From positions 1-16,764 of IMG/VR virus record IMGVR_UViG_3300028591_000093: a DNA stretch of 16,764 nt; one strand, 5' to 3'. Shown here one piece after another: positions 1-13,608 of the stretch (the stretch's first letter is position 1; every line of letters begins with the position of its first letter). Source of the DNA: a virus. Its lineage: Duplodnaviria; Heunggongvirae; Uroviricota; Caudoviricetes. The notes beneath the pieces are model-generated. The model was not told where the DNA came from. It did not search any database and saw only the letters and a program-made list of their open reading frames with translations. Made by a program: the position numbers and the translations under genes.

Positions 1-1220
1 CCCACACTCCAGGCAAGAGACTGGCTATACTGGTTGATAGTCCAGAACCAGTAATTAACATCCTCATCTGGGTTTTGTGCATCATAGTGTCTCCAAAGAT
101 TAGATACACTGTTAGGTACTTTGAATAATTTTCTAAGTACTAACTTATGCGCCATAGATGCAAGCATAAACTCACTCATACTAGGTAAGTAAGGTTGCTG
201 AATAATGTTGTCTGCACTCATTTGAATAGAGTCACACCATTGAGCAGCTTGGAACTTACCCCAGTTAAGAATAAGTGCTTGAGTTGCTAAGTTACCATTG
301 TAATCATTGAAGAATGCTTCTCTAGCAGCATGAGTAGAACTCTCACCAGCAACATCTTCATAAGCATGATAACCAGGATTACTCAGTACATCTACAACTG
401 GTAAACACCACTCTTTATATGTAGTATTATTTGGTAATACAACAAAGGATGCATCAGGGTCTACAATTAAGATACCGTCAATGTTTGCTAAGTTCTCTGT
501 ATCAATATCCCAGCTTCTATCCCCAACCCAATCATCAATACTTGGATTATAGAAGGTGTTGTTCTTGATATAGTAGCAAGTCATATCTTTAAGAGTAGTT
601 AAACTATAGTGTCCTTGATATTCATCAGCATCTGGAATCTCATAGTAATCCAAATCATGATATTTCCAATCATCTCCTTCAAATGAATAGTTGATACCTC
701 TATCAGATTTAAAGTTATTAGTAATAGGAAGTAAACAAAGAGTAACATCTTGATTTACTTGTCTATACACTTGTCTCGGTGCAGCACCATAACCACTCTT
801 TTTAGCATAGATTTGATAGATGTCACAAGTAGGAATAGTAATAGTTACTTCTCCAAAAGAGTTAGTAGTATATTCCTTATGATAATTAGTAGCCTCAGTC
901 TCATCCAGAGGTACACCATACTTACCATCAATAGTGTAACAATCTACAATGACTGTTGCATTTGCAGCAACTTTCTTTACCATGTAATCTGGGTTAGAAC
1001 TGTCAACAAGCTCATCAATATGATAAACTTTAATTGTAGCTTTAAACTGGTCAATGTGTCTATGCTTATCATAGTAAGTGGTCATATCCTGCACATCTTT
1101 CAATTGTACATTAGTATTCTTCAAACTATATGTAGGATGTGCTACAGTACCACCAGCAGTAACATCCTGTGTACCATGCAGAAGAATACCTCTTATGTAA
1201 TCAAACAGTTTAATTTTCAT
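1..1220 (-). CDS. Partial (3' end runs off the window) receptor-binding/fibre-type protein, >406 aa, with a C-terminal C-type-lectin-fold / DUF1566-like domain
   Basis: Not in the ORF track. Manual translation from ATG at 1220 is open to the window edge (MKIKLFDYIRG...PYLPSMSEFML...NYWFWTINQYSQSLAWSV). The LPSxxE and W-T-x-x-Q-Y-S-x-x-x-AW-x-V motifs resemble CLec/DUF1566 phage proteins. The start overlaps the end of the upstream gene (1210-1220). Confidence 0.75.
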   Translation of the reverse strand, partial: MKIKLFDYIRGILLHGTQDVTAGGTVAHPTYSLKNTNVQLKDVQDMTTYYDKHRHIDQFKATIKVYHIDELVDSSNPDYMVKKVAANATVIVDCYTIDGKYGVPLDETEATNYHKEYTTNSFGEVTITIPTCDIYQIYAKKSGYGAAPRQVYRQVNQDVTLCLLPITNNFKSDRGINYSFEGDDWKYHDLDYYEIPDADEYQGHYSLTTLKDMTCYYIKNNTFYNPSIDDWVGDRSWDIDTENLANIDGILIVDPDASFVVLPNNTTYKEWCLPVVDVLSNPGYHAYEDVAGESSTHAAREAFFNDYNGNLATQALILNWGKFQAAQWCDSIQMSADNIIQQPYLPSMSEFMLASMAHKLVLRKLFKVPNSVSNLWRHYDAQNPDEDVNYWFWTINQYSQSLAWSV

Positions 1221-3198: not shown

Positions 3199-4701
3199 TT
3201 AAGAAATTACAACAGTTATAGCAGAACCAGTTTGTATATCACCACTTCTGTAAATTCTATATTCTACTTGATAACCATACTCATTAGTAATAATTCTATC
3301 TTCTGTTACCCAGCCAGTATAGGAAAGACCACCAACAGTAGTAGTGATATTACCTAAACTTTTAGGAATCGCATAATAGAAATACTTACCACCAGAGCAG
3401 TTATAAGTTATTGTTTTTGCTTTACTGTTAGACAACTCACTAGAAAGAGTAGCTAAATCAACGCTAGATGCAGTAGCACTTGCTCCCCAGAATCTTCTAT
3501 GCTGGAAAGAAACAGAAGCACTTGCACTTGTAGTATCATTACCAGTAGCCTTAACTACTTTGTTATTTGATACAATTAAACCACTCTTAGGAGCAGTAAA
3601 TGTACAATTATAAGTAACACTTGAAGTTATATTACTTGTTTCTAGCACTGCTTGTGCACCAGCTTCTACATTGATAAATGTCCAAGAACCAGATGCTCCT
3701 GTGGGGGCTTTCTAAGATGCAGAAGGTGTTGGAATACTAGCAGTGCCAATATAATCTACTTTAGCACCATTCTCAACAGAAATACTAGCGTTATGAGAAG
3801 TACTCTTTTCTACATCTTGCTGGTCCTTAATAGTCCAAGTGTGTGCAATAGCAGGAGTTACTAAAGTTAAGTCCCCTTCATAATTACTGCCATCTTTTAA
3901 CATATAAGGAGAGAAATCAATTGCATCAAATTTAGCATCAATTTCAGTCTTATTGTAGTAATTATTAGCAACCTCTTGTGCTAATGCTGTTAAATCAGCA
4001 GACCTTGCAACTGATTCATCAACAGACAAGTTATAACCAATAATTACATTACCTTGCTTGATTTCTTCTACAGTAATACCACCATCTTGTGTAGCACCAA
4101 TAACAGTCTTAGTTAAGGATTGTAATTGTTGAAGCACCCATTCAGTAGTAGCATAAATAGATACATCTGGACCAAGTTTAATCCAAACTCTACCACTCCA
4201 GATATACTCATCATTACCTGCTCTATAGAAATCTCCTTTGTGTAACTGTTCAACTGGAATTGCATCCAGCTCTTCCTTATCTGTTACACAACCTGCAAGA
4301 TGAACATAATCATCATATTTTGCTTCATCTGCTGAAATTTGACCAGACAATCTCTAGTCAAGCTCTTGAATAAGTTGTTCAAGTCTGTTGAATTCACCCT
4401 CACCACCACTTACCTGGTAAAGATAAATAAGGGACCCTTGTAAGAGTTTACACAGGTGCATAAGGTCTTCTTTTGTAAGATGCTTAGCACCATTATCAAA
4501 TCTTATTACCACTTCAGACAGTTGATGTAACAAATCATCTAAAGAAGTAATGCTAGGATATGGTTCTGTGTAAATGTTATCAGCTGTAGTCTACAGGCTT
4601 TCAATATCTCTAACAACAAAACTGTTTGTCAGACCACTTTCCAAACCTCTCTGTGTACTTACAGGGTTAATAAAAATTGGGATTTGTACTTGCCCAGCCA
4701 T
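3199..4701 (-). CDS. 500-aa fibre-like structural protein
   Basis: ATG at 4701 lies 1 nt after the RT TGA. Read-through of TAGs at 4591-93, 4354-56 and 3712-14 joins ORFs 3712..4350 and 3199..3648 in one frame, ending at TAA 3199. The C-terminus is Ser/Thr-rich and beta-strand-like. Confidence 0.7.
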
Positions 4702-4702
4702 A

Positions 4703-6004
4703 TCAGTTATAATAATAGTATTTATGTTTATATTGTATTGTTGTAGCAAATGGGAAATATTCCTAATCCCTTGCTAATCTATCTTTCAAAACTTCAGAAG
4801 AAGAGATAAAGGTATAGTCTTCTGATTCTTGGTCTTCTTCCAAGAAGGAAAATCTAACAACTACTTTATCTACTCCTTTTATAGGAACTATTGCAAATTC
4901 TTTAATTGCAATCTGCTTGTCTACCACATCTACAATACTGAGTCTTTTCTCAATAGGTACACCAAGCCATCTGTCATATCCCTTTTTCTCAGTCAAAGTC
5001 TGGTAGGGCATTTTCTTAAACAATTTAATATTTCTACCATTTAATATCACTTTCCACAAACCAAAAGACCTAGTTAGTTGTAGCCAACCCATATAACTTG
5101 CCATTTGTTGTTTGAATACATGGTCATCAACACCTTGCTTATTAAGTTTATTGGCCTTTTGTTTTATATGCAAATATAAATGTCTCTGGAGTTTAATACT
5201 GTTTTCTGTAAATATACAGCCAACCATTTTAACCCCACTTCTCACTGGAGCAATCCTCACATTATTCTTTACTGTAAGTTTATGACTATCAGCAAATTTA
5301 AGAATTTCTCCAAGAAGGAACTTAGCCATTTCTTTTGTAGGTATAATAATGAGTATATCATCCATATACCTAAAATAATACTTTACTCCAAGAACTTCTT
5401 TAAAATAATGGTCACAGGCAGATAAAAATAAATTAGCAAGATATTGACTACTGCCAACACCAATTGCTAAACCTTTCTCGTTTCTATCTATCAACCTTTC
5501 AAAATACCTTATGATTCTCTTATCTTTAAATGTTTCTCTGACCATTTGCTTCATTATATCATGGTCAATAGACTCATAAAAGTGTCTGAAATCAGTTTTA
5601 AGATAATACCATTCTTGATGAGTATTTACAACTACAGATATTTGTTTAGCTAGTTTATGTAAACCTCTGTATTGTAAACTACCAAAAGAACACCAAGGTA
5701 TTCTATCAAGAAGTTCCCATTTAACCTTTCTTAGGACAGTATGGTCAAGTATTTTATCAGGATAAAGATTTGGGGCATGAATATCTCTTTCTTTGGGCTC
5801 ATAAACCTTAAAAGAAAAGAGTGGGGTTAACTGATAAGTTTCATCTTTAAGTTGTTGCTACAATGTAGCTATTATCTAATCATGTTGTCTCATGCATCTT
5901 TCTACAGCCTTCTAATTCTTACAGACTGCTAAGGCCTCTCTAAAACCATTTTCTAGATTACCCTTTTCATAAACCTCTTCCCATGTAATTTTTGACCTTA
6001 TCAT
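4703..6004 (-). CDS. DGR-type reverse transcriptase, 433 aa, with a ~100-aa C-terminal extension
   Basis: Contains YYFRYMDD (catalytic YxDD) and GLAIGVGSSQYLANL (IGxxxSQ motif typical of DGR RTs), plus N-terminal F.VYEPKER.I and YLKTDFRHFYESIDH motifs. ATG at 6004, TAGs at 5912, 5876, 5858 and 4763 read as Gln, ends at TGA 4703. Adjacent to a TR/VR pair. Confidence 0.95.
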
Positions 6005-6011
6005 AATACTT

Positions 6012-6251
6012 CCCTGTCCTAGTTAGTAAGTCATCTTCAGCAATTGCTTACCAACACCTTACTAATATACAGTGTTCTGTTGTTAAACAACAAGGTTGTG
6101 ACTTAGTTGCACTAAGGAAGTGCTATATTAACAATATGTATTAAGTGACAGTTAGGAGGCAAACCCATTCACATTGTTAGCATTGTTAACATTGTTAGCA
6201 TTGTTAGCACGACCAAGCCCATAGAGGGTTTGCCTACCTAAGTCACAACCT
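6012..6251 (-). ncRNA. Putative structured DGR template RNA (5' flank - TR - spacer)
   Basis: A perfect 14-bp inverted repeat (6093-6106 / 6238-6251) encloses a 10-bp inverted repeat (6157-6166 / 6226-6235) and a small hairpin (6109-6123). The transcript ends are inferred, not seen. Confidence 0.6.
6155..6231 (-). repeat. DGR template repeat (TR), 77 nt
   Basis: Minus strand reads AA ACC CTC TAT GGG CTT GGT CGT GCT AAC AAT GCT AAC AAT GTT AAC AAT GCT AAC AAT GTG AAT GGG TTT GCC TCC. It is intergenic, rich in AAY codons and aligns without gaps to 8229-8305. Confidence 0.95.
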
Positions 6252-6258
6252 ATAAAAA

Positions 6259-6528
6259 TTATTTTCTAATAATCTTATAATAAGTACTAGTAATAGTACC
6301 TCTACCACCCTCACCACCAGGAGTACCTGTTGTTGTATAAGGACCTTCTTTTAAAGAAATACCTGTAGTAATTAAATTGTCAGATTCTGTTGAAGGACCT
6401 ACCAAGTACTAGAAGTATCCAAGAGACATTCCTCTTAAAAAGTCTTCAATTGGGCTGGTAGCATCTTCTCCATTTAAGTACTGAAAGTACCCTAATGAAA
6501 TCCCTCTTAAACACAAATCATCCAACAT
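6259..6528 (-). CDS. 89-aa hypothetical protein with a tandem LRG(I/M)SLGYFQYL repeat, located at the position usually held by avd
   Basis: ATG 6528 lies 2 nt after the target-gene TAA. One TAG (6409-11), TAA at 6259. Missing from the ORF track because of the TAG. Confidence 0.75.
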
Positions 6529-6530
6529 AA

Positions 6531-8663
6531 TTAGTCTCCTTTTGTTACAAATACTGCAAATTGCATGTAAGGTTGGTCAAGAACTGATTTAGAACCAGCT
6601 TCTACTGAACCAGAAGTTGTGTAAGCATATGGATTACCAGAACCTTGTGGTTGGTCATTGATTGAGCTGACATTGATAACACCATTACTCTTCAATACAA
6701 AGTATTCACCTCTAGTTGCAGCAGGTACCCACTGTGCAATAGGAACAACCCTATCAACACCAGATTGAGTAATTTCTGCATCCGTTCTATCATCAAACAT
6801 CACTGCTATTTGATAACTGTTATCAGTTGGGCAAGTAAATGGAAGATTAGCATCTGCCACAAAAGACTCACCTGGCTCAACAGTTCTAGCATTGAATGTT
6901 ATTTGTTTACCATTTTCAGGATTATAATAAGTTACACCAGAAACAAGATTAACTCCTGTACCAACTGTGCTATAAACACTAGACCTACATCTACAATATA
7001 CAACATTCTGTACATTAGGGTCTACTATTTGATAAGCATAGATAGTACCTGTAGCATCTGCACTCATTGTGTAGCTATTATAATTTCCTTCCACAGCTGC
7101 TGCTGTTACAACAAGCATATCATCTGGTTTTCTACCTTCATAATCAGCATATGTTGGATTCCAGTACATTGCTCTGTCAGTATCAGAAGCATTGCTGTCT
7201 TTTCTTAACAAGTATTTACCAGCAGGCAGCGAATCACCAGGACCATACTGAGTGCCAGTATACTTATCTAAGTTCATAGTTGCATGTTTGTCAGTAATAT
7301 GGTCAGATTGAATCGCATATACTGCATTATATTGCAACTGTGAAGGATTAATCTTCATTATTTTTGAATAGATAGCACCTTTATTTTCTTGAGTGTTACT
7401 CTCATCAAGTTTGATGTTACCATTTTCTACCTTGATACAACCTGTAATAGTTCTGTTATCAAAGCACCAAGTGTGACCATCAGAAGCAGTTCTTACACCA
7501 GCACCTGTAGTGCCAAGTACTGCAATGTGTGCAGCAGGTGGAAATGCTCCATAATATAAGTTATTCTGTGGGAATACACAAGCTGCTGTTGGCTTCAAAG
7601 TGAAATCAAGCCCATCTGGGTCATTGAAGATGTCATAAGCAGTTTGGTCAGGGAATACACAAGCATTATCACCAGTTGCAAATTGCATTGACTTAGAAGC
7701 TGTGATAAGATTTAAACTAATCATTGCATTTACTACATCAGAGATATTTGGTGTATCACCTGCAATCTCATTATCAGTAAGTGTGATAGTTAAAGTAACA
7801 TTTTCATCATCATATGCATAACTGAGTGTTTCACCAGTATCCCAGAGAATTTGCCAGTTCTTAGTTACATTACCTGTACCACCAGCTCTTTTCACAAAAT
7901 ATCTACAGTCACTTGCAAAACAACATTGCTGGAAGTAATCTCTTGAGTTTTCATTTGCCTCAACAAAAAAGTCCCACTTTGCATAGACACATCTGTTTCC
8001 ATAATGTCTACCAGTAGCGGCTCCATCTCCTCTTCTTACAATGTTATTTTCTACTCTATCTATTCTTGTATTGTAATAAGTGCAATATGTAGATTGGCTT
8101 CCTGAGTAGTTACTCAATACTACTCCACAACCAGTATTTCTTCTGATGTCAGAGTAGATGATTCTACTGGGGCTGCTGCCTCCAGCACAGCCCCTCCATA
8201 GTTTACTTTGGTGTACTAGGACAGGGCTGGAGGCAAACCCATACACAAAGTCAGCATAGCTAACACTGCCAGCACCGACAGCACGACCAAGCCCATAGAG
8301 GGGTTTATAAGCATCAACTGTTGAAGCATCTGCACCAGCTACTTCCTCACCACCATTCATAAATATCATGTTAGGATAGCCACCAAACCAAGGCAATGTA
8401 TTAACACCCTTACCATCCCAAATAGCAGCACCATAGTAGTCAGCTTTTAGTTGTGTTGAGTGATTACCAACCATAGAATCTGAGAAAATACCTCTCAAGA
8501 TTATAGTACCTGGTTTACTTGTTTGATTATAATATGCTTGAGTAATAGTTCTGTAAGGATTCTGCATAGTACCATCACCATGCTCATCTGAACCAAATCT
8601 ACTATCAACATATTTATTACCATTAGTTGTTCTCCATCTAAAATCTCTATTAGTTGTTGCCAT
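6531..8663 (-). CDS. 710-aa DGR target protein, probably a receptor-binding tail fibre/spike with an N-terminal beta-helix-like start motif
   Basis: Contains the VR at codons ~120-145. The N-terminal YVDSRFGSDEHGDGTMQNPYRTITQAY resembles the cap motif of right-handed parallel beta-helix proteins. It lies in the fibre gene cluster. Confidence 0.8.
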   Translation of the reverse strand: MATTNRDFRWRTTNGNKYVDSRFGSDEHGDGTMQNPYRTITQAYYNQTSKPGTIILRGIFSDSMVGNHSTQLKADYYGAAIWDGKGVNTLPWFGGYPNMIFMNGGEEVAGADASTVDAYKPLYGLGRAVGAGSVSYADFVYGFASSPVLVHQSKLWRGCAGGSSPSRIIYSDIRRNTGCGVVLSNYSGSQSTYCTYYNTRIDRVENNIVRRGDGAATGRHYGNRCVYAKWDFFVEANENSRDYFQQCCFASDCRYFVKRAGGTGNVTKNWQILWDTGETLSYAYDDENVTLTITLTDNEIAGDTPNISDVVNAMISLNLITASKSMQFATGDNACVFPDQTAYDIFNDPDGLDFTLKPTAACVFPQNNLYYGAFPPAAHIAVLGTTGAGVRTASDGHTWCFDNRTITGCIKVENGNIKLDESNTQENKGAIYSKIMKINPSQLQYNAVYAIQSDHITDKHATMNLDKYTGTQYGPGDSLPAGKYLLRKDSNASDTDRAMYWNPTYADYEGRKPDDMLVVTAAAVEGNYNSYTMSADATGTIYAYQIVDPNVQNVVYCRCRSSVYSTVGTGVNLVSGVTYYNPENGKQITFNARTVEPGESFVADANLPFTCPTDNSYQIAVMFDDRTDAEITQSGVDRVVPIAQWVPAATRGEYFVLKSNGVINVSSINDQPQGSGNPYAYTTSGSVEAGSKSVLDQPYMQFAVFVTKGD
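8169..8194 (-). promoter_or_regulatory. Candidate IMH-type GC-rich hairpin 34 nt downstream of the VR, inside the coding sequence
   Basis: GGGGCTGTGCTGGAGGCAGCAGCCCC can fold into a ~10-bp stem with a 2-nt bulge and a 4-nt loop. It uses GC-ending codons that are unusual for this genome. Confidence 0.5.
8229..8305 (-). repeat. DGR variable repeat (VR), encoding KPLYGLGRAVGAGSVSYADFVYGFAS
   Basis: Identical to the TR except at 14 positions, all A in the TR: ACC>CCC, AAC>GTC, AAT>GGT, AAC>GGC, AAT>AGT, AAC>AGC, AAT>TAT, AAC>GAC, AAT>TTT, AAT>TAT. Confidence 0.95.
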
Positions 8664-9167: not shown

Positions 9168-12100
9168 TTAAGATGCAGCACTTACTATACTTCTTTGTGT
9201 ACCACCATTGATTAACCAACCAATAGTAGGAATATAAGTTCCAACATATTCTGCTACTTGACCAGCAGGAATTGATTCAATGTTTGTCATTAACTTTGCA
9301 GTTACTCCACCTACTGTATAGAAAGTAGGAGTTACAGCACTACCACTAGTATTAGAAATGATAACAGAGCATGTAGTTACTTTACCTGTATTAGATGGTT
9401 GTCCAACATAAACAGTAGAACCTGTAGTTATGTATACTTCATAATTACCATTCATAGGTGATGCTTGAGATAATGTTGTAGTATATCTACCAACATGACC
9501 AATTACATCTTGAATAGATAAATGAGATGAAGTTACTGTACCACCATTATATCCACCTACATTTTTAAGATAGAAGTTATCTCCAGATAAAGTATAACCT
9601 AATGCACTTATTGCATTATTACTATCAATTGCTACATTATCTCCAGAAGTATATTTGGAATCAGATGCAATCTAATAAATCTTTGAACCATCATTATAGA
9701 AAAGCTTACCTGTTATAGGATTGTAACTTTGTCTAGACCCATTGAAATGTGACATTGGGTCATCAGCTTCACCACCCGCTATATAAACTTTTTCATAATC
9801 AGTTCTAGCATTATTTAATTGCCAAACTCCATAGTCGGTACTTGTCTTATCAACATAGAATATAAGATTATCAATTATGATTTTAAGACAGTTAATATAT
9901 AAGTTCTGATATGAGAAAGCATTATACATAAATTTGCTTTCTCCTGCAAACATGCTCCATAAATCAGGAGTTACAGAATTGCCGTTTCTATCATATACTC
10001 CACTTCCTGTTGTATAATCTGGTAATGCTGGCAATGCAATATTAGTCACAGGATTTTTACCTGAACTAGAATAAGGAGTAAAATCATATGTTTTACTCTT
10101 AAAGTCTATCTTTAACTCTGAACCATTGTAATCAGCTCCTTCAATTGTAGAACTTGCTGTACCAAACTTTAATGTAAGAATGCCGTTGTCAAATGAAACA
10201 AGGTTCTTCATTACAGCAGCATTACCAGAAGAATTAGTATCTAATTCAGAAAGATATGGAGCTAACCAATAACCTTTATCCCAATAATTACCAGCATCTT
10301 TTTGACTAAAGTTACCATCAATTATCTTTGAATTATACCATTTCTTAGTAGAAATGTCATATATAGAACCAAATATATAAATAGTACCTGTATAGCTTTC
10401 AGAAGAATCTGAAAGTTGAGCAATAGACATCGAGCTAGAATTGGTTACAACTCCATTGATAAATCCAATATAACCTGAAGCTTCAACTGAACTATTAGCA
10501 GTTACTGTTTCTGTTCCAATAAGTACTCTATTATGTCTGCCAGTAGAGGTTTTGATGTTAGCAATACTATATACATTTACAGTTCCAGATGGGAATGATT
10601 CAGCACCTTGAGAAGAAACTCTACCTGTCCAGTAAATAACTTTAGCAGTATTATTGTTTTGATTAACACTTACCCAAGCAAATTCACTAGGCATTTTAGG
10701 AGAATTCTCTCCAGTACTACCACTAGGATAAATATCATATAAAGTATTTCTATAATAAACATCTTTATTAGTAGAAAAATGTCTTGCAACAGCATTAGAA
10801 TCATTTACAATAGAGAAACCAATTTGGTCTCCAGTTGTATTACCCGAAGTTGTTCCAATTAAAGATTCTACTATATAAGAAGATTTACTATATGGCATCA
10901 AGTAACCATTGAATTCTATAGAATTTACTTTATTCTTAACAGCACCACCATCATTATACCATCTACTATAACCATAACCACTATTAGATACATATGTACC
11001 ATCTCCATATTCTGGCATGTTGTTACCATAACTGTTATTATGGCAAGCAGCCTAGAATTGTTGCCAAGATGCAAGAACATCAGTTTCAATATTATCAGGA
11101 CTCTTACATTGTAAAAAATCTTGTTGATTATCTACAATCAAAGCATCTTGATATAACAATTGATGTGTAGTTAACTCATCATTTTCATCAGAGTAGATTA
11201 ACTCATGTCTAACTGTTGGTACTTCACAATGAATTTTATTATCATCATCAATGTTGATAAGTCTACCTGCTTCATAAGCTCCCTTACCACCACTTCCTTG
11301 AATCTTTAAGTCATAATTAGTACCATCAGTATATTCAATTCTGAAAGTATAATAATCTTCCTCATCAGGCAATCCTGATACTTGATAAATAGTTCTAATA
11401 CTTCTACATCTCAAATCTCCAAGTTCGATAATAGTTTGAAAACTATCAAAAGACATTTGAAGTTTTTGATAGCTCATTGGAGGATAATCCTCATCAGTAA
11501 TGTTGATTAACCTAAATGCTGGAATTAAACCTTCAGCATTAAGTAAATCCCCTTTAGGACCTCTAATGTTACCACCAGTGTTTTGCCAGATTTGAGTAGA
11601 GGTTAATTCATCAATACTGTTTAATCTAAATACATCACCAATATTAGCAAATGTATCATCGGTTCCTGTATAGACAGCATAGTCACCAACATCAGCACCA
11701 GCAATGTTAATTGGGGCAGTAGTTGTAAAGAACACAGGATGACCTTGTTCACCTCTAGGGCCCTGGTCTCCTTGCTCACCTTTTACACCATTTCTTACCT
11801 TGAATGTACCAATATAAGTACTATCTTCAGGAGAATCTCCTTCTTCCCCAACATACATATCATAGAAGTTATAATCACCACTAGTTGTTATAAATGCTGT
11901 TGGGTCTGATTCATTCTCATTATTAAGAACAATGTTGTTTACAGCATATCCTCTTGGCCCTCTAAAACTACCAATCTTATCAAAGCTTGTTGTAGTAGCA
12001 CCATGAATATCAAGGCCATTACCTAAACTGATATAAACATCACCTGTATCAGTATTTAAGTAATAATCACCTCTTGGAATATTCATCACATAAGTACCAT

Positions 12101-12881
12101 TCTCAGTAACTTCAGTACCATAGTGCCAAGTAGAATAAGCAGGTAAAGTAAGATAAACCTCACCTGCATTATCTTCTCCACTTGTAAAGTCAGTATCAAG
12201 AGTACCAATCAATCTATTAGTTCCAGTAATAAAGAACTGTATAGTCTTATTCTCATTAAAATGATTACTAACTTCACAATAATCTGCTACTTCAGCATGA
12301 TATGCTTCTTTAATTTTCTCAATAGTAGTTGGTAAAATACCATGAGGGTCATAGATTGCTTCTTGGTCATTCTCATCAATAATAACAGTTAAGTTATTAT
12401 ATTGAGTATTTTCAGCAGTGTTAATATGTAATTCTGTCCAATGTGCTAAGTTGTAATTCTCAACAAACACATCAGAAATAGACAGATTGTTAATAACACC
12501 AGTTTTGTCAACAGAAGCTTTTCTAGCAGAGCAATAAGCATAAGAAGATTGAGGAATCAAAATTCTAAATACTTCATTGTTGCTATCATATGTATAATAC
12601 AATGTAGATTCTCTACCTCTACTTAAACCTGTAAAGTTGAGATAACTACCATTGATAAAGAGATTAAATACACCATCACAGATAATACCTTGTGCATCAA
12701 AATAAAGTAACTTAATAGTCACAATATCCTGGTCTTGACAAGGTATTGTAATCATTTTAGTCTCACTAGTACCGTTCTGGAAAGGTAAGTATCTCTTATT
12801 TGCTCCTTGAACAAAACCAGTCAAACCAGCAGTACCAACACCAGACTGGTTTTCAAATTCAGTAATATCAGTATTATTCAT
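9168..12881 (-). CDS. ~1237-aa large tail fibre-like protein with collagen-like Gly-X-Y segments
   Basis: ORFs 11052..12905, 9672..11018 and 9168..9455 are in one frame and joined by TAGs at 11052 and 9672. ATG 12881 follows GGGGAGGA and overlaps the upstream stop. GVKGEQGDQGPRGEQG at ~11742-11789, with RGPRG and RGPKGD nearby. Confidence 0.8.
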
Positions 12882-13608
12882 TGAACAGGTCCTCCCCTTC
12901 TTCACTAGTTAACATTTTTAAACTATCTACTTCAGCATCTCCTGTTTGTACAAGAGCCTCTCTATTAAGAGTACCATCACCCCAAGCATGGTTGAGTTGA
13001 ACTTTAAGTGCAGCAGCAATAGCTTCTATACTTGTTTTCTCACCAATAAGGTCAATAAATGGTCTGAATTCTTCTGCTACTGGATGGAAGTAATATGGCT
13101 TACCAGCACTACTGGAGTTACTAGCTTCAGTAGCATTGTTAACATCATAGACTAACCAGTAGTCTTTCTTGTCATTATCTGACATTGTACTAATGTTGGC
13201 TTTAATATTCTCAAACTGAGCCTCAGTTACTAAATGCCATTTTGGTATATAATCACAGTTCACTTCTACATCCAATTTAGTTATTGTTCCAGATTCTGTT
13301 ACATCCCAGTTAAGAGTTCTCCATGTCCAGGATGTTTGAGGTGTATTAACATTAGTTGCAAATACATCTGGAGCAGTTCTTGTTTTTACAAAATCACTGT
13401 TCTTCAAGATGAATTGTTGCTGTAGGTCATGCAATTTTTGCTGAACCTCGGGCTCAACATCTAAAAAGTCAGCCCACTGAGCAACATCACACACTATTAC
13501 CATGAATAATGTCTTCTCCCAAGTACAGTCATGTGTTTGTCCAAGATACCTTAACTTGTCATAATAAGCAAGTATAGTATCATATAATGTCTTACCTACA
13601 GCTATCAT
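12874..13608 (-). CDS. 244-aa hypothetical structural protein (tail/collar region of a crAss-like phage)
   Basis: Clean ORF, coupled to both neighbours. Function inferred from context only. Confidence 0.6.
   Translation of the reverse strand: MIAVGKTLYDTILAYYDKLRYLGQTHDCTWEKTLFMVIVCDVAQWADFLDVEPEVQQKLHDLQQQFILKNSDFVKTRTAPDVFATNVNTPQTSWTWRTLNWDVTESGTITKLDVEVNCDYIPKWHLVTEAQFENIKANISTMSDNDKKDYWLVYDVNNATEASNSSSAGKPYYFHPVAEEFRPFIDLIGEKTSIEAIAAALKVQLNHAWGDGTLNREALVQTGDAEVDSLKMLTSEEGEDLFNE

Follow-up and report, generated by a model that had tools for sequence, protein, structure and literature searches.

Organisation of the locus

The window analysed here, a stretch of 16,764 nucleotides (nt), is the first 16.8 kb of a crAss-like gut phage genome of 169,151 bp and carries a diversity-generating retroelement (DGR) on its minus strand. 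Along that strand the target gene, an open reading frame (ORF) of 89 amino acids (aa), the template region (TR), the spacer and the reverse transcriptase (RT) gene follow one another with small gaps between them. A segment of 12 nt in the spacer is exactly complementary to the target sequence lying just past the variable region (VR), and we consider it likely that this 12-mer serves as the primer segment of the DGR template RNA and as the complement of the initiation of mutagenic homing (IMH) site of the target. The main features of the locus are:

4703..6004, minus strand: DGR reverse transcriptase, 433 aa, with an RVT_1 domain and the motifs IGVGSSQ and YMDD
6005..6154, minus strand: spacer RNA from the TR to the RT start, 150 nt, which holds the 3' arm of a stem and a conserved hairpin
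6155..6231, minus strand: TR, a 77-nt repeat with nine AAY codons
6259..6528, minus strand: small ORF between target and TR, 89 aa, with one TAG read as Gln and an internal duplication
6531..8663, minus strand: DGR target gene, 710 aa, with no in-frame TAG and no Pfam match
8229..8305, minus strand: VR, within the 710-aa target at about aa 120-146

A total of 14 differences were found between the TR and the VR over the 77-nt repeat, and all 14 fall at TR adenines. The last 12 nt of the VR, GGGTTTGCCTCC (8240..8229), are free of adenine and the same as the TR end, and the plus strand of this block at the VR 3' end (8229-8240) reads GGAGGCAAACCC. The two ends of the TR are complementary to each other (6157-6166 with 6226-6235). 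In six independent contigs from the window's cluster and from a second cluster of relatives described below, every VR is different at TR adenines but the TRs hardly vary. Adenine-specific TR/VR mismatches are thus combined with a DGR-type RT and with a naturally varying VR beside a near-constant TR, which identifies the locus as a DGR. The RT begins with the ATG at 6004..6002 on the minus strand, matches RVT_1 in Pfam (E = 3.9e-12), shows the IGVGSSQ and YMDD motifs in its translation and carries a C-terminal extension of about 100 aa. In the phage collection, the annotated proteins closest to it are RTs of crAss-like phages and of Bacteroides phages (p00/Hankyphage group), which we take to be DGR RTs. 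No second VR with the same flank was found in the phage's own genome.

The position of the VR near the N-terminus of a 710-aa target is unusual. In most of the DGR targets described so far, the VR is C-terminal and belongs to a C-type lectin fold. As the VR lies near the N-terminus here, both the IMH-like site and the hairpin that follows it must be encoded within the reading frame. Our impression is that the N-terminus of the target resembles right-handed beta-helix proteins.

Complementarity between the spacer and the VR boundary

The two segments that form the complement are:

6012..6023, minus strand: 12-mer ACUAGGACAGGG, the proposed primer and IMH-complement segment, spacer nt 132-143
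8215..8226, minus strand: IMH-like candidate primer-binding site in the target, sense strand CCCTGTCCTAGT, beginning 3 nt past the VR end

The minus strand from 6023 to 6012 reads ACTAGGACAGGG, with CCCTGTCCTAGT on the plus strand (6012-6023), and the plus strand at 8215-8226 is again ACTAGGACAGGG, followed by CT and then by the adenine-free block of 8229-8240. The complement therefore lies 2 nt from the VR end, and the 12-mer itself ends 7 nt before the RT ATG. Both the exact 12-nt complementarity and the two distances had been given in a preliminary description of the locus and are confirmed here. When one mismatch at most is allowed, the 12-mer occurs at only two sites in the 169,151-bp genome. 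The 150-nt spacer shares about 11 other distinct matches of at least 12 nt, in either orientation, with the genome as a whole; from these, the chance that a complementary spacer match falls no more than about 15 nt from the VR end is about 1e-3, which agrees with the rough value proposed earlier.

The target codons at the site are AGC CCT GTC CTA, of which the site itself covers CCT GTC CTA GT. in the reading frame. In the long ORFs of the window GTC accounts for 4% of Val codons, CTA for 5% of Leu codons and AGC for 8% of Ser codons, so that all three are rare, as had been remarked before of the first two. The retention of rare codons at the target site points to constraint at the nucleotide level.

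Covariation in related elements

Close relatives were found as Logan/ENA contigs by means of protein look-ups (fetched loci are designated by L and a number), while no close relatives were found in the viral contig collection when it was searched with the RT protein and the conserved spacer pattern. The RT search gave two close clusters, namely the window's own cluster (97-98% identical) and cluster 2 (73%), and a wider clade that is about 40% identical. The order of target, small ORF, TR and RT is common to all the relatives fetched.

Four more contigs were compared within the window's cluster. Their VRs vary at TR adenines, and both 12-mers are unchanged except in the target of L183. As the VRs vary while both 12-mers stay fixed, the element is active and its primer site is held constant in this cluster. 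In L183 the target C at +3 is replaced by T opposite an unchanged G, giving a G.T wobble, an intermediate step towards the A:T pair seen in cluster 2.

The two segments have changed together in cluster 2. The target flank differs from the window by three synonymous changes (CCCTGTCCTAGT to TCCAGTCCTGGT) that retain the protein sequence SPVLVH, and the spacer segment has changed from ACTAGGACAGGG to AACAGGACTGGA, complementary to the changes in the target. In five contigs (L001, L090, L169, L170 and L171) all three target changes are compensated and the perfect run is 10 nt, whereas in L173 and L174, which have CTA and not CTG, the outermost pair is lost and the run is 9 nt. The complement in cluster 2 ends 1 nt from the RT ATG. 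Overall, the compensatory changes comprise two firm pairs, one partial pair that occurs in some relatives only and one wobble intermediate. Co-variation of the spacer 12-mer with the post-VR sequence in related DGRs, which had been put forward as a way of checking the proposal, was thus found in the form of compensatory changes, and the view that base pairing between the spacer and the VR flank would be under selection is well supported by them.

These changes also bear on a very improbable explanation, in which the 12-mer match has arisen by chance or represents the terminal inverted repeats of an invertible or mobile segment of 2.2 kb. The a posteriori value of about 1e-3 is not negligible over a scan of many windows, and the two copies of the 12-mer are formally inverted repeats placed 2191 nt apart. 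Against this stand the compensatory changes in the relatives, the arrangement of target, small ORF, TR and RT that is the same in every relative fetched, and the fact that BPP-1, the DGR of a Bordetella phage, and many other DGRs share this arrangement; in addition, on our reading of the sequence, inversion adds only about 44 open codons. The invertible segment with terminal repeats was rejected on account of the compensatory changes, the constant arrangement and the small number of codons gained, and the 12-mer match is not a chance one.

Two further observations were made among the relatives. A second DGR lies about 6.7 kb downstream of the first RT in L001 (12076-12912) and is also found in L170, L171 and L173. 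In L001 it consists of a TR at 12816-12912, a VR at 12076-12172 and its own second RT gene. These second DGRs of cluster 2 show 14-19 TR/VR mismatches, 93-100% of them at TR adenines, and their best spacer/VR-end complement is 9 nt at an offset of +21 (p = 0.1). The open-ended ORF at 3..1220 of the window may be the target corresponding to this second DGR. Separately, the DGR at 7734-8994 of L087, which comes from a metagenome-assembled genome of Paludibacteraceae and has an RT 38% identical to that of the window, adjoins cas1 and cas2, and this neighbourhood is probably a chance adjacency inside a prophage or genomic island.

Pairing with the TR flank, RNA folding and hairpins

Three further features are involved in the pairing and folding of the locus:

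6147..6154, minus strand: TR 3' flank UAACUGUC, similar to the IMH counterpart of the TR (IMH*), which pairs with spacer nt 137-144
6238..6251, minus strand: 5' arm of a long-range RNA stem enclosing the TR, 14/14 paired with 6093-6106
8169..8194, minus strand: GC-rich hairpin GGGGCTG...CAGCCCC, about 35 nt downstream of the VR, DNA fold z = -3.6

The segment that matches the VR flank also matches the TR flank, to a lesser extent. Over positions +1 to +8 the TR flank pairs with spacer nt 137-144 through one base pair (U+1:A144), two mismatches (A+2 and A+3 with G143 and G142) and five base pairs (CUGUC, +4 to +8, with G137-G141), or 6/8 in all. The same layout is kept in cluster 2, where A+1 pairs with U and CAGUUCU with AGGACUG, so that the first pair of the TR flank covaries (U:A in the window, A:U in cluster 2). 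In the window the calculated duplex energies of the VR and TR flanks are -24.1 and -11.4 kcal/mol, in cluster 2 they are -23.3 and -11.4 kcal/mol, and non-cognate combinations of primer and flank give -16.6 kcal/mol. Only the VR flank offers partners for spacer nt 132-136 and 142-143, among them the compensated positions 134 and 143.

It is improbable, in the light of these pairings, that the segment serves TR pairing alone and that the VR flank originated as a copy of the TR flank, has since diverged and takes no part in choosing the target. The two flanks do share CTGTC in the window and CAGT.CT in cluster 2, and priming in BPP-1 requires pairing between the spacer (Sp) and the TR. However, the VR flank pairs with the segment over 12/12 positions and the TR flank over only 5 contiguous bases, a difference of about 12 kcal/mol; the two compensated positions have no partner in the TR flank; the target retains its rare codons; and, across the DGRs surveyed below, the spacer matches bases specific to the VR and not those of the TR.

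The stem enclosing the TR is still paired in cluster 2 although its sequence there is mostly different, with 3 of the 14 pairs changed on both sides (RNAalifold). The spacer also carries a conserved hairpin, UGUUGUUUAACAACA, and RNAalifold gave a further pairing of 4 bp inside it, CUGU/ACAG for the window and CAGU/ACUG for cluster 2, by which the primer segment could be kept at rest. A search of Rfam gave no family for the TR-spacer RNA.

The GC-rich hairpin downstream of the VR is accompanied by a larger imperfect inverted repeat (8177-8193 with 8219-8235) that overlaps the VR end and part of the primer site. A different GC hairpin of 8 bp occupies the equivalent place in cluster 2. The hairpin at 8169-8194 corresponds to the stem-loop that follows the IMH in BPP-1. 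A local variant was observed in L083 (RT about 39% identical), in which CTGTCC of the homologous target pairs with GGACAG 4 nt downstream (4061-4080) to form a local hairpin, followed by two further GC hairpins (DNA fold z = -5.1). The pairing partner of the CTGTCC-type target bases is thus in cis in L083 and in the spacer in the window.

Survey of spacer complements across DGRs

TR/VR pairs were detected automatically in all fetched loci, which gave a discovery set of 88 non-redundant pairs and a replication set of 37 new pairs from cellular genomes. In each pair, the 235 nt that follow the TR were compared with a stretch of 50 nt around the VR 3' end and the length of their longest exact complement was recorded, with direct, reversed and reverse-complement-reversed orientations and permuted pairings as controls. 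This exact-run statistic, together with its orientation and permutation controls, is the main survey evidence.

Complements of at least 9 nt were found in 33 of the 88 discovery pairs, compared with 4 (direct), 2 (reversed) and 7 (reverse-complement-reversed) in the controls, and in 10 of the 37 replication pairs, compared with 1, 2 and 4 respectively; across both sets 2-11% of the controls reach this length. The cognate mean exceeds the permuted one in discovery (8.03 vs 6.79 +/- 0.12) as well as in replication (7.81 vs 7.14 +/- 0.17). The VR flank was the better match than the TR flank by 49 to 25 in discovery (p = 9e-4) and by 21 to 9 in replication. The matched segment usually begins 6-10 nt before TR/VR identity ends. 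In L136 the spacer TAAAAACGGCACA-ATG matches the VR sequence TGTGCCGTTTTTA and not the TR sequence TATACCGTAAATT, and VR-specific bases are likewise matched in L077, L100, L120 and L161. Second or distant VRs of one DGR also share the complement, as in L107 (downstream of the RT), L077 and L040 (about 6 kb away). On these counts, cognate complementarity between spacer and VR end is widespread among DGRs.

Of the 32 strong cases, 19 have a matched segment whose end lies -1 to +8 nt from the RT ATG. This placement is relevant to the main rival explanation, namely that the post-VR part of the polycistronic mRNA pairs as RNA with the sequence just upstream of the RT start and controls translation of the RT, for example if the RT start became accessible only during the passage of ribosomes through the target gene. 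Target, small ORF, TR and RT do share a strand, separated by small gaps, the 12-mer is 7 nt from the ATG (1 nt in cluster 2), most of the survey complements abut the RT ATG, and the covariation fits RNA-RNA pairing equally well. We nevertheless regard translational control as unlikely. In BPP-1 the equivalent segment has been mapped as the primer, and 88 nt separate it from the ATG. RNA-RNA pairing leaves the exact placement at the VR boundary unexplained, for which chance gives about 30 in 2100; it also has to contend with second and distant VRs that share the complement, among them those of L107, downstream of the RT, and L040, about 6 kb away. Finally, the VR flank outpairs the TR flank across DGRs, which is the signature of IMH vs IMH*.

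In many DGRs, among them L136, L077, L057, L207, L225 and L247, the VR-end complement abuts or overlaps the RT start codon (for example GCAAAGGC-ATG, TAAAAACGGCACA-ATG). Where the complement reaches the start codon, one RNA could hardly be both primer and RT message, and the arrangement might couple or partition translation and templating.

Proposed mechanism

The reading that we prefer, in which the 12-mer is the primer segment of the template RNA and pairs with the IMH of the target, can be set out as a series of steps that use one further feature:

6011, minus strand: predicted priming nucleotide A144, placed by analogy with BPP-1 Sp A56, within about 2 nt

A transcript comprising the 3' end of the small ORF, the TR and the spacer would fold such that the long stem encloses the TR. 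Spacer nt 137-144 would then pair with the TR 3' flank UAACUGUC, which would place A144 opposite U+1, and the RT would start the cDNA on the last C of GCCUCC. This cDNA, beginning GGAGGCAAACCC, would remain joined to the RNA. The joined RNA segment ACUAGGACAGGG would next pair over 12/12 positions with the sense strand just 3' of the VR, much better than with the TR flank, and this pairing would anchor the RNA-cDNA hybrid at the VR 3' boundary and set its register, so that the VR and not the TR acts as recipient. Exposure of the strand is probably aided by the GC hairpin that lies about 35 nt downstream.

The preliminary description had proposed that an RNA ending near the 12-mer and extended by TR cDNA would form a continuous mimic of the target antisense strand and give homing programmed by base pairing. 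The complementarity of the 12-mer in such a mimic stands, while perfect continuity does not, as the target AG separates the site from the first cDNA-templated base. Homing programmed by base pairing is supported by the compensatory changes, by the BPP-1-like geometry of the TR flank and by the enrichment in the survey. We infer that the pairing is with target DNA rather than RNA, that priming occurs at the nucleotide named above, that the cDNA is covalently linked to the RNA and that the pairing is required for homing.

Several observations weigh against this reading. The priming site is placed by analogy only, and the 2-nt unpaired gap (the target AG) means that the helix is not continuous. 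The core covarying position A140/T has a possible partner within the spacer itself (CUGU/ACAG, CAGU/ACUG), so that part of the covariation could serve RNA folding. A site of this kind was observed in two diverged lineages only, and elements whose RTs are about 40% identical show just 6-9-nt matches at their start codons. In four of these (L082, L083, L086 and L087) the complement between spacer and post-VR sequence is at most 6 nt when the search ends at the RT ATG; the 6-9-nt complements appear over the start codon when the search is extended across it and are individually weak (for example TATGAAAGC in L082, GCAGACGA-ATG in L187 and AAGTTAGGA in L191). Many of the matches in the survey share motifs because target C-termini are conserved, and the independent events are thus fewer than the counts. 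An energy-based version of the survey separated cognate from reversed pairs only at p = 0.08 (-29.05 vs -28.07 kcal/mol), with z of about 4.4 against permuted pairs; this version discriminates poorly. Long sequences allow many alternative pairings, and the composition of the TR flank differs.

Small ORF and stop codon usage

The 89-aa ORF occupies the position expected for the accessory protein Avd. No Avd was recognised at the locus, and the Pfam search matched neither this ORF nor the 710-aa target to any family. To our knowledge, not every DGR encodes Avd. TAG is used by the phage as a sense codon, as seen from in-frame TAGs within ORFs, and in the RT codons 31, 43, 49 and 414 are TAGs read as Gln. 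The usage of TAG was found to differ within the locus, with four in the RT, one in the 89-aa ORF and none in the 710-aa target. In the internal duplication of the 89-aa ORF, the TAG in one copy aligns with CAG in the other (YFQY).

Implications

We see an even chance that the IMH of DGRs in general is just the binding site for a cDNA-joined RNA primer, which would make target choice RNA-programmed and co-evolving. The accompanying claim, that most phage and Bacteroidota-type DGRs place the programming segment directly against the RT start codon, may be held with the same balanced confidence. A general rule of spacer/VR-end complementarity was not found as published in the literature that we searched. 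If the rule is true, the targets of DGRs, distant ones included, would be predictable from the spacer and a DGR would be retargetable by changing about 10 nt, which would aid the annotation of DGR targets and IMH sites in metagenomes and the retargeting of DGR mutagenesis tools. As spacer nt 132-136 and 142-143 pair with the target flank only, changes at these positions should separate homing from priming.

Comparison with known systems

In group II intron retrohoming, pairing between exon-binding and intron-binding sites (EBS-IBS) directs the ribozyme to reverse-splice into DNA, and the cDNA is target-primed. The likeness to the proposed mechanism is that an RNA joined to the reverse-transcription machinery picks its DNA by a short pairing beside the insertion point. 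Unlike in the intron, DGR cDNA is made first, is RNA-primed and then replaces a homologous segment. The non-coding msr-msd RNA of retrons is similar in that, after pairing locally, it supplies one of its own internal nucleotides as the primer for cDNA, although the retron product, multicopy single-stranded DNA (msDNA), is not homed into a target gene.

The closest comparison is with BPP-1, in which priming has been mapped to spacer A56 and templating starts at TR G117; priming needs the Sp-TR pairs next to A56 and involves a 2'-OH branch (Handa 2018, PMC6182149). The pairing of the BPP-1 RNA primer is more extensive at the IMH of the VR than at the IMH* of the TR, and it was proposed that the better IMH pairing directs integration and explains directionality (Naorem 2017, PMC5703328). 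The A56 primer and the distinction between IMH and IMH* are described in three papers (Naorem 2017, PMC5703328; Handa 2018, PMC6182149; Guo 2011, PMC3240598), while a 2026 paper describes how DGR cDNA finds and replaces the VR, and the role of the IMH in this, as unknown (PMC12875486). In the BPP-1 sequence that we fetched, Sp 48-56, AGGUGGUCA (AGGTGGTCA), ends at A56 and is complementary over 9/9 positions to VR 118-126 in the IMH and over 7/9 to the TR IMH*.

In both elements, therefore, part of the spacer that follows the TR is a perfect partner for the VR 3' end but an imperfect one for the TR 3' end (9/9 vs 7/9 in BPP-1, 12/12 vs 6/8 in the window). An adenine-free block before the site and a GC hairpin after it are also common to the two, as is directionality from a sequence that is present in the VR and absent in the TR. 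Several differences were observed. The segment lies 7 nt from the RT ATG in the window and 88 nt from it in BPP-1. Unlike in BPP-1, the IMH-like site of the window is wholly outside TR/VR identity and inside a reading frame, the latter because the VR lies near the N-terminus of a 710-aa protein. The window also has a 2-nt gap to the cDNA start, no recognisable Avd, and an RT of 433 aa with a C-terminal extension and TAG read as Gln.

The two elements differ in the kind of support as well. For BPP-1 it consists of junction mapping and mutagenesis of the primer-TR pairs, and primer-IMH pairing there is a proposal based on one element and on inspection of its sequence. For the window it consists of natural covariation in an independent DGR distant from BPP-1, which amounts to a natural compensatory-mutation experiment. 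The primer-IMH pairing model has thus already been proposed for BPP-1, and natural covariation is what the window adds to it.

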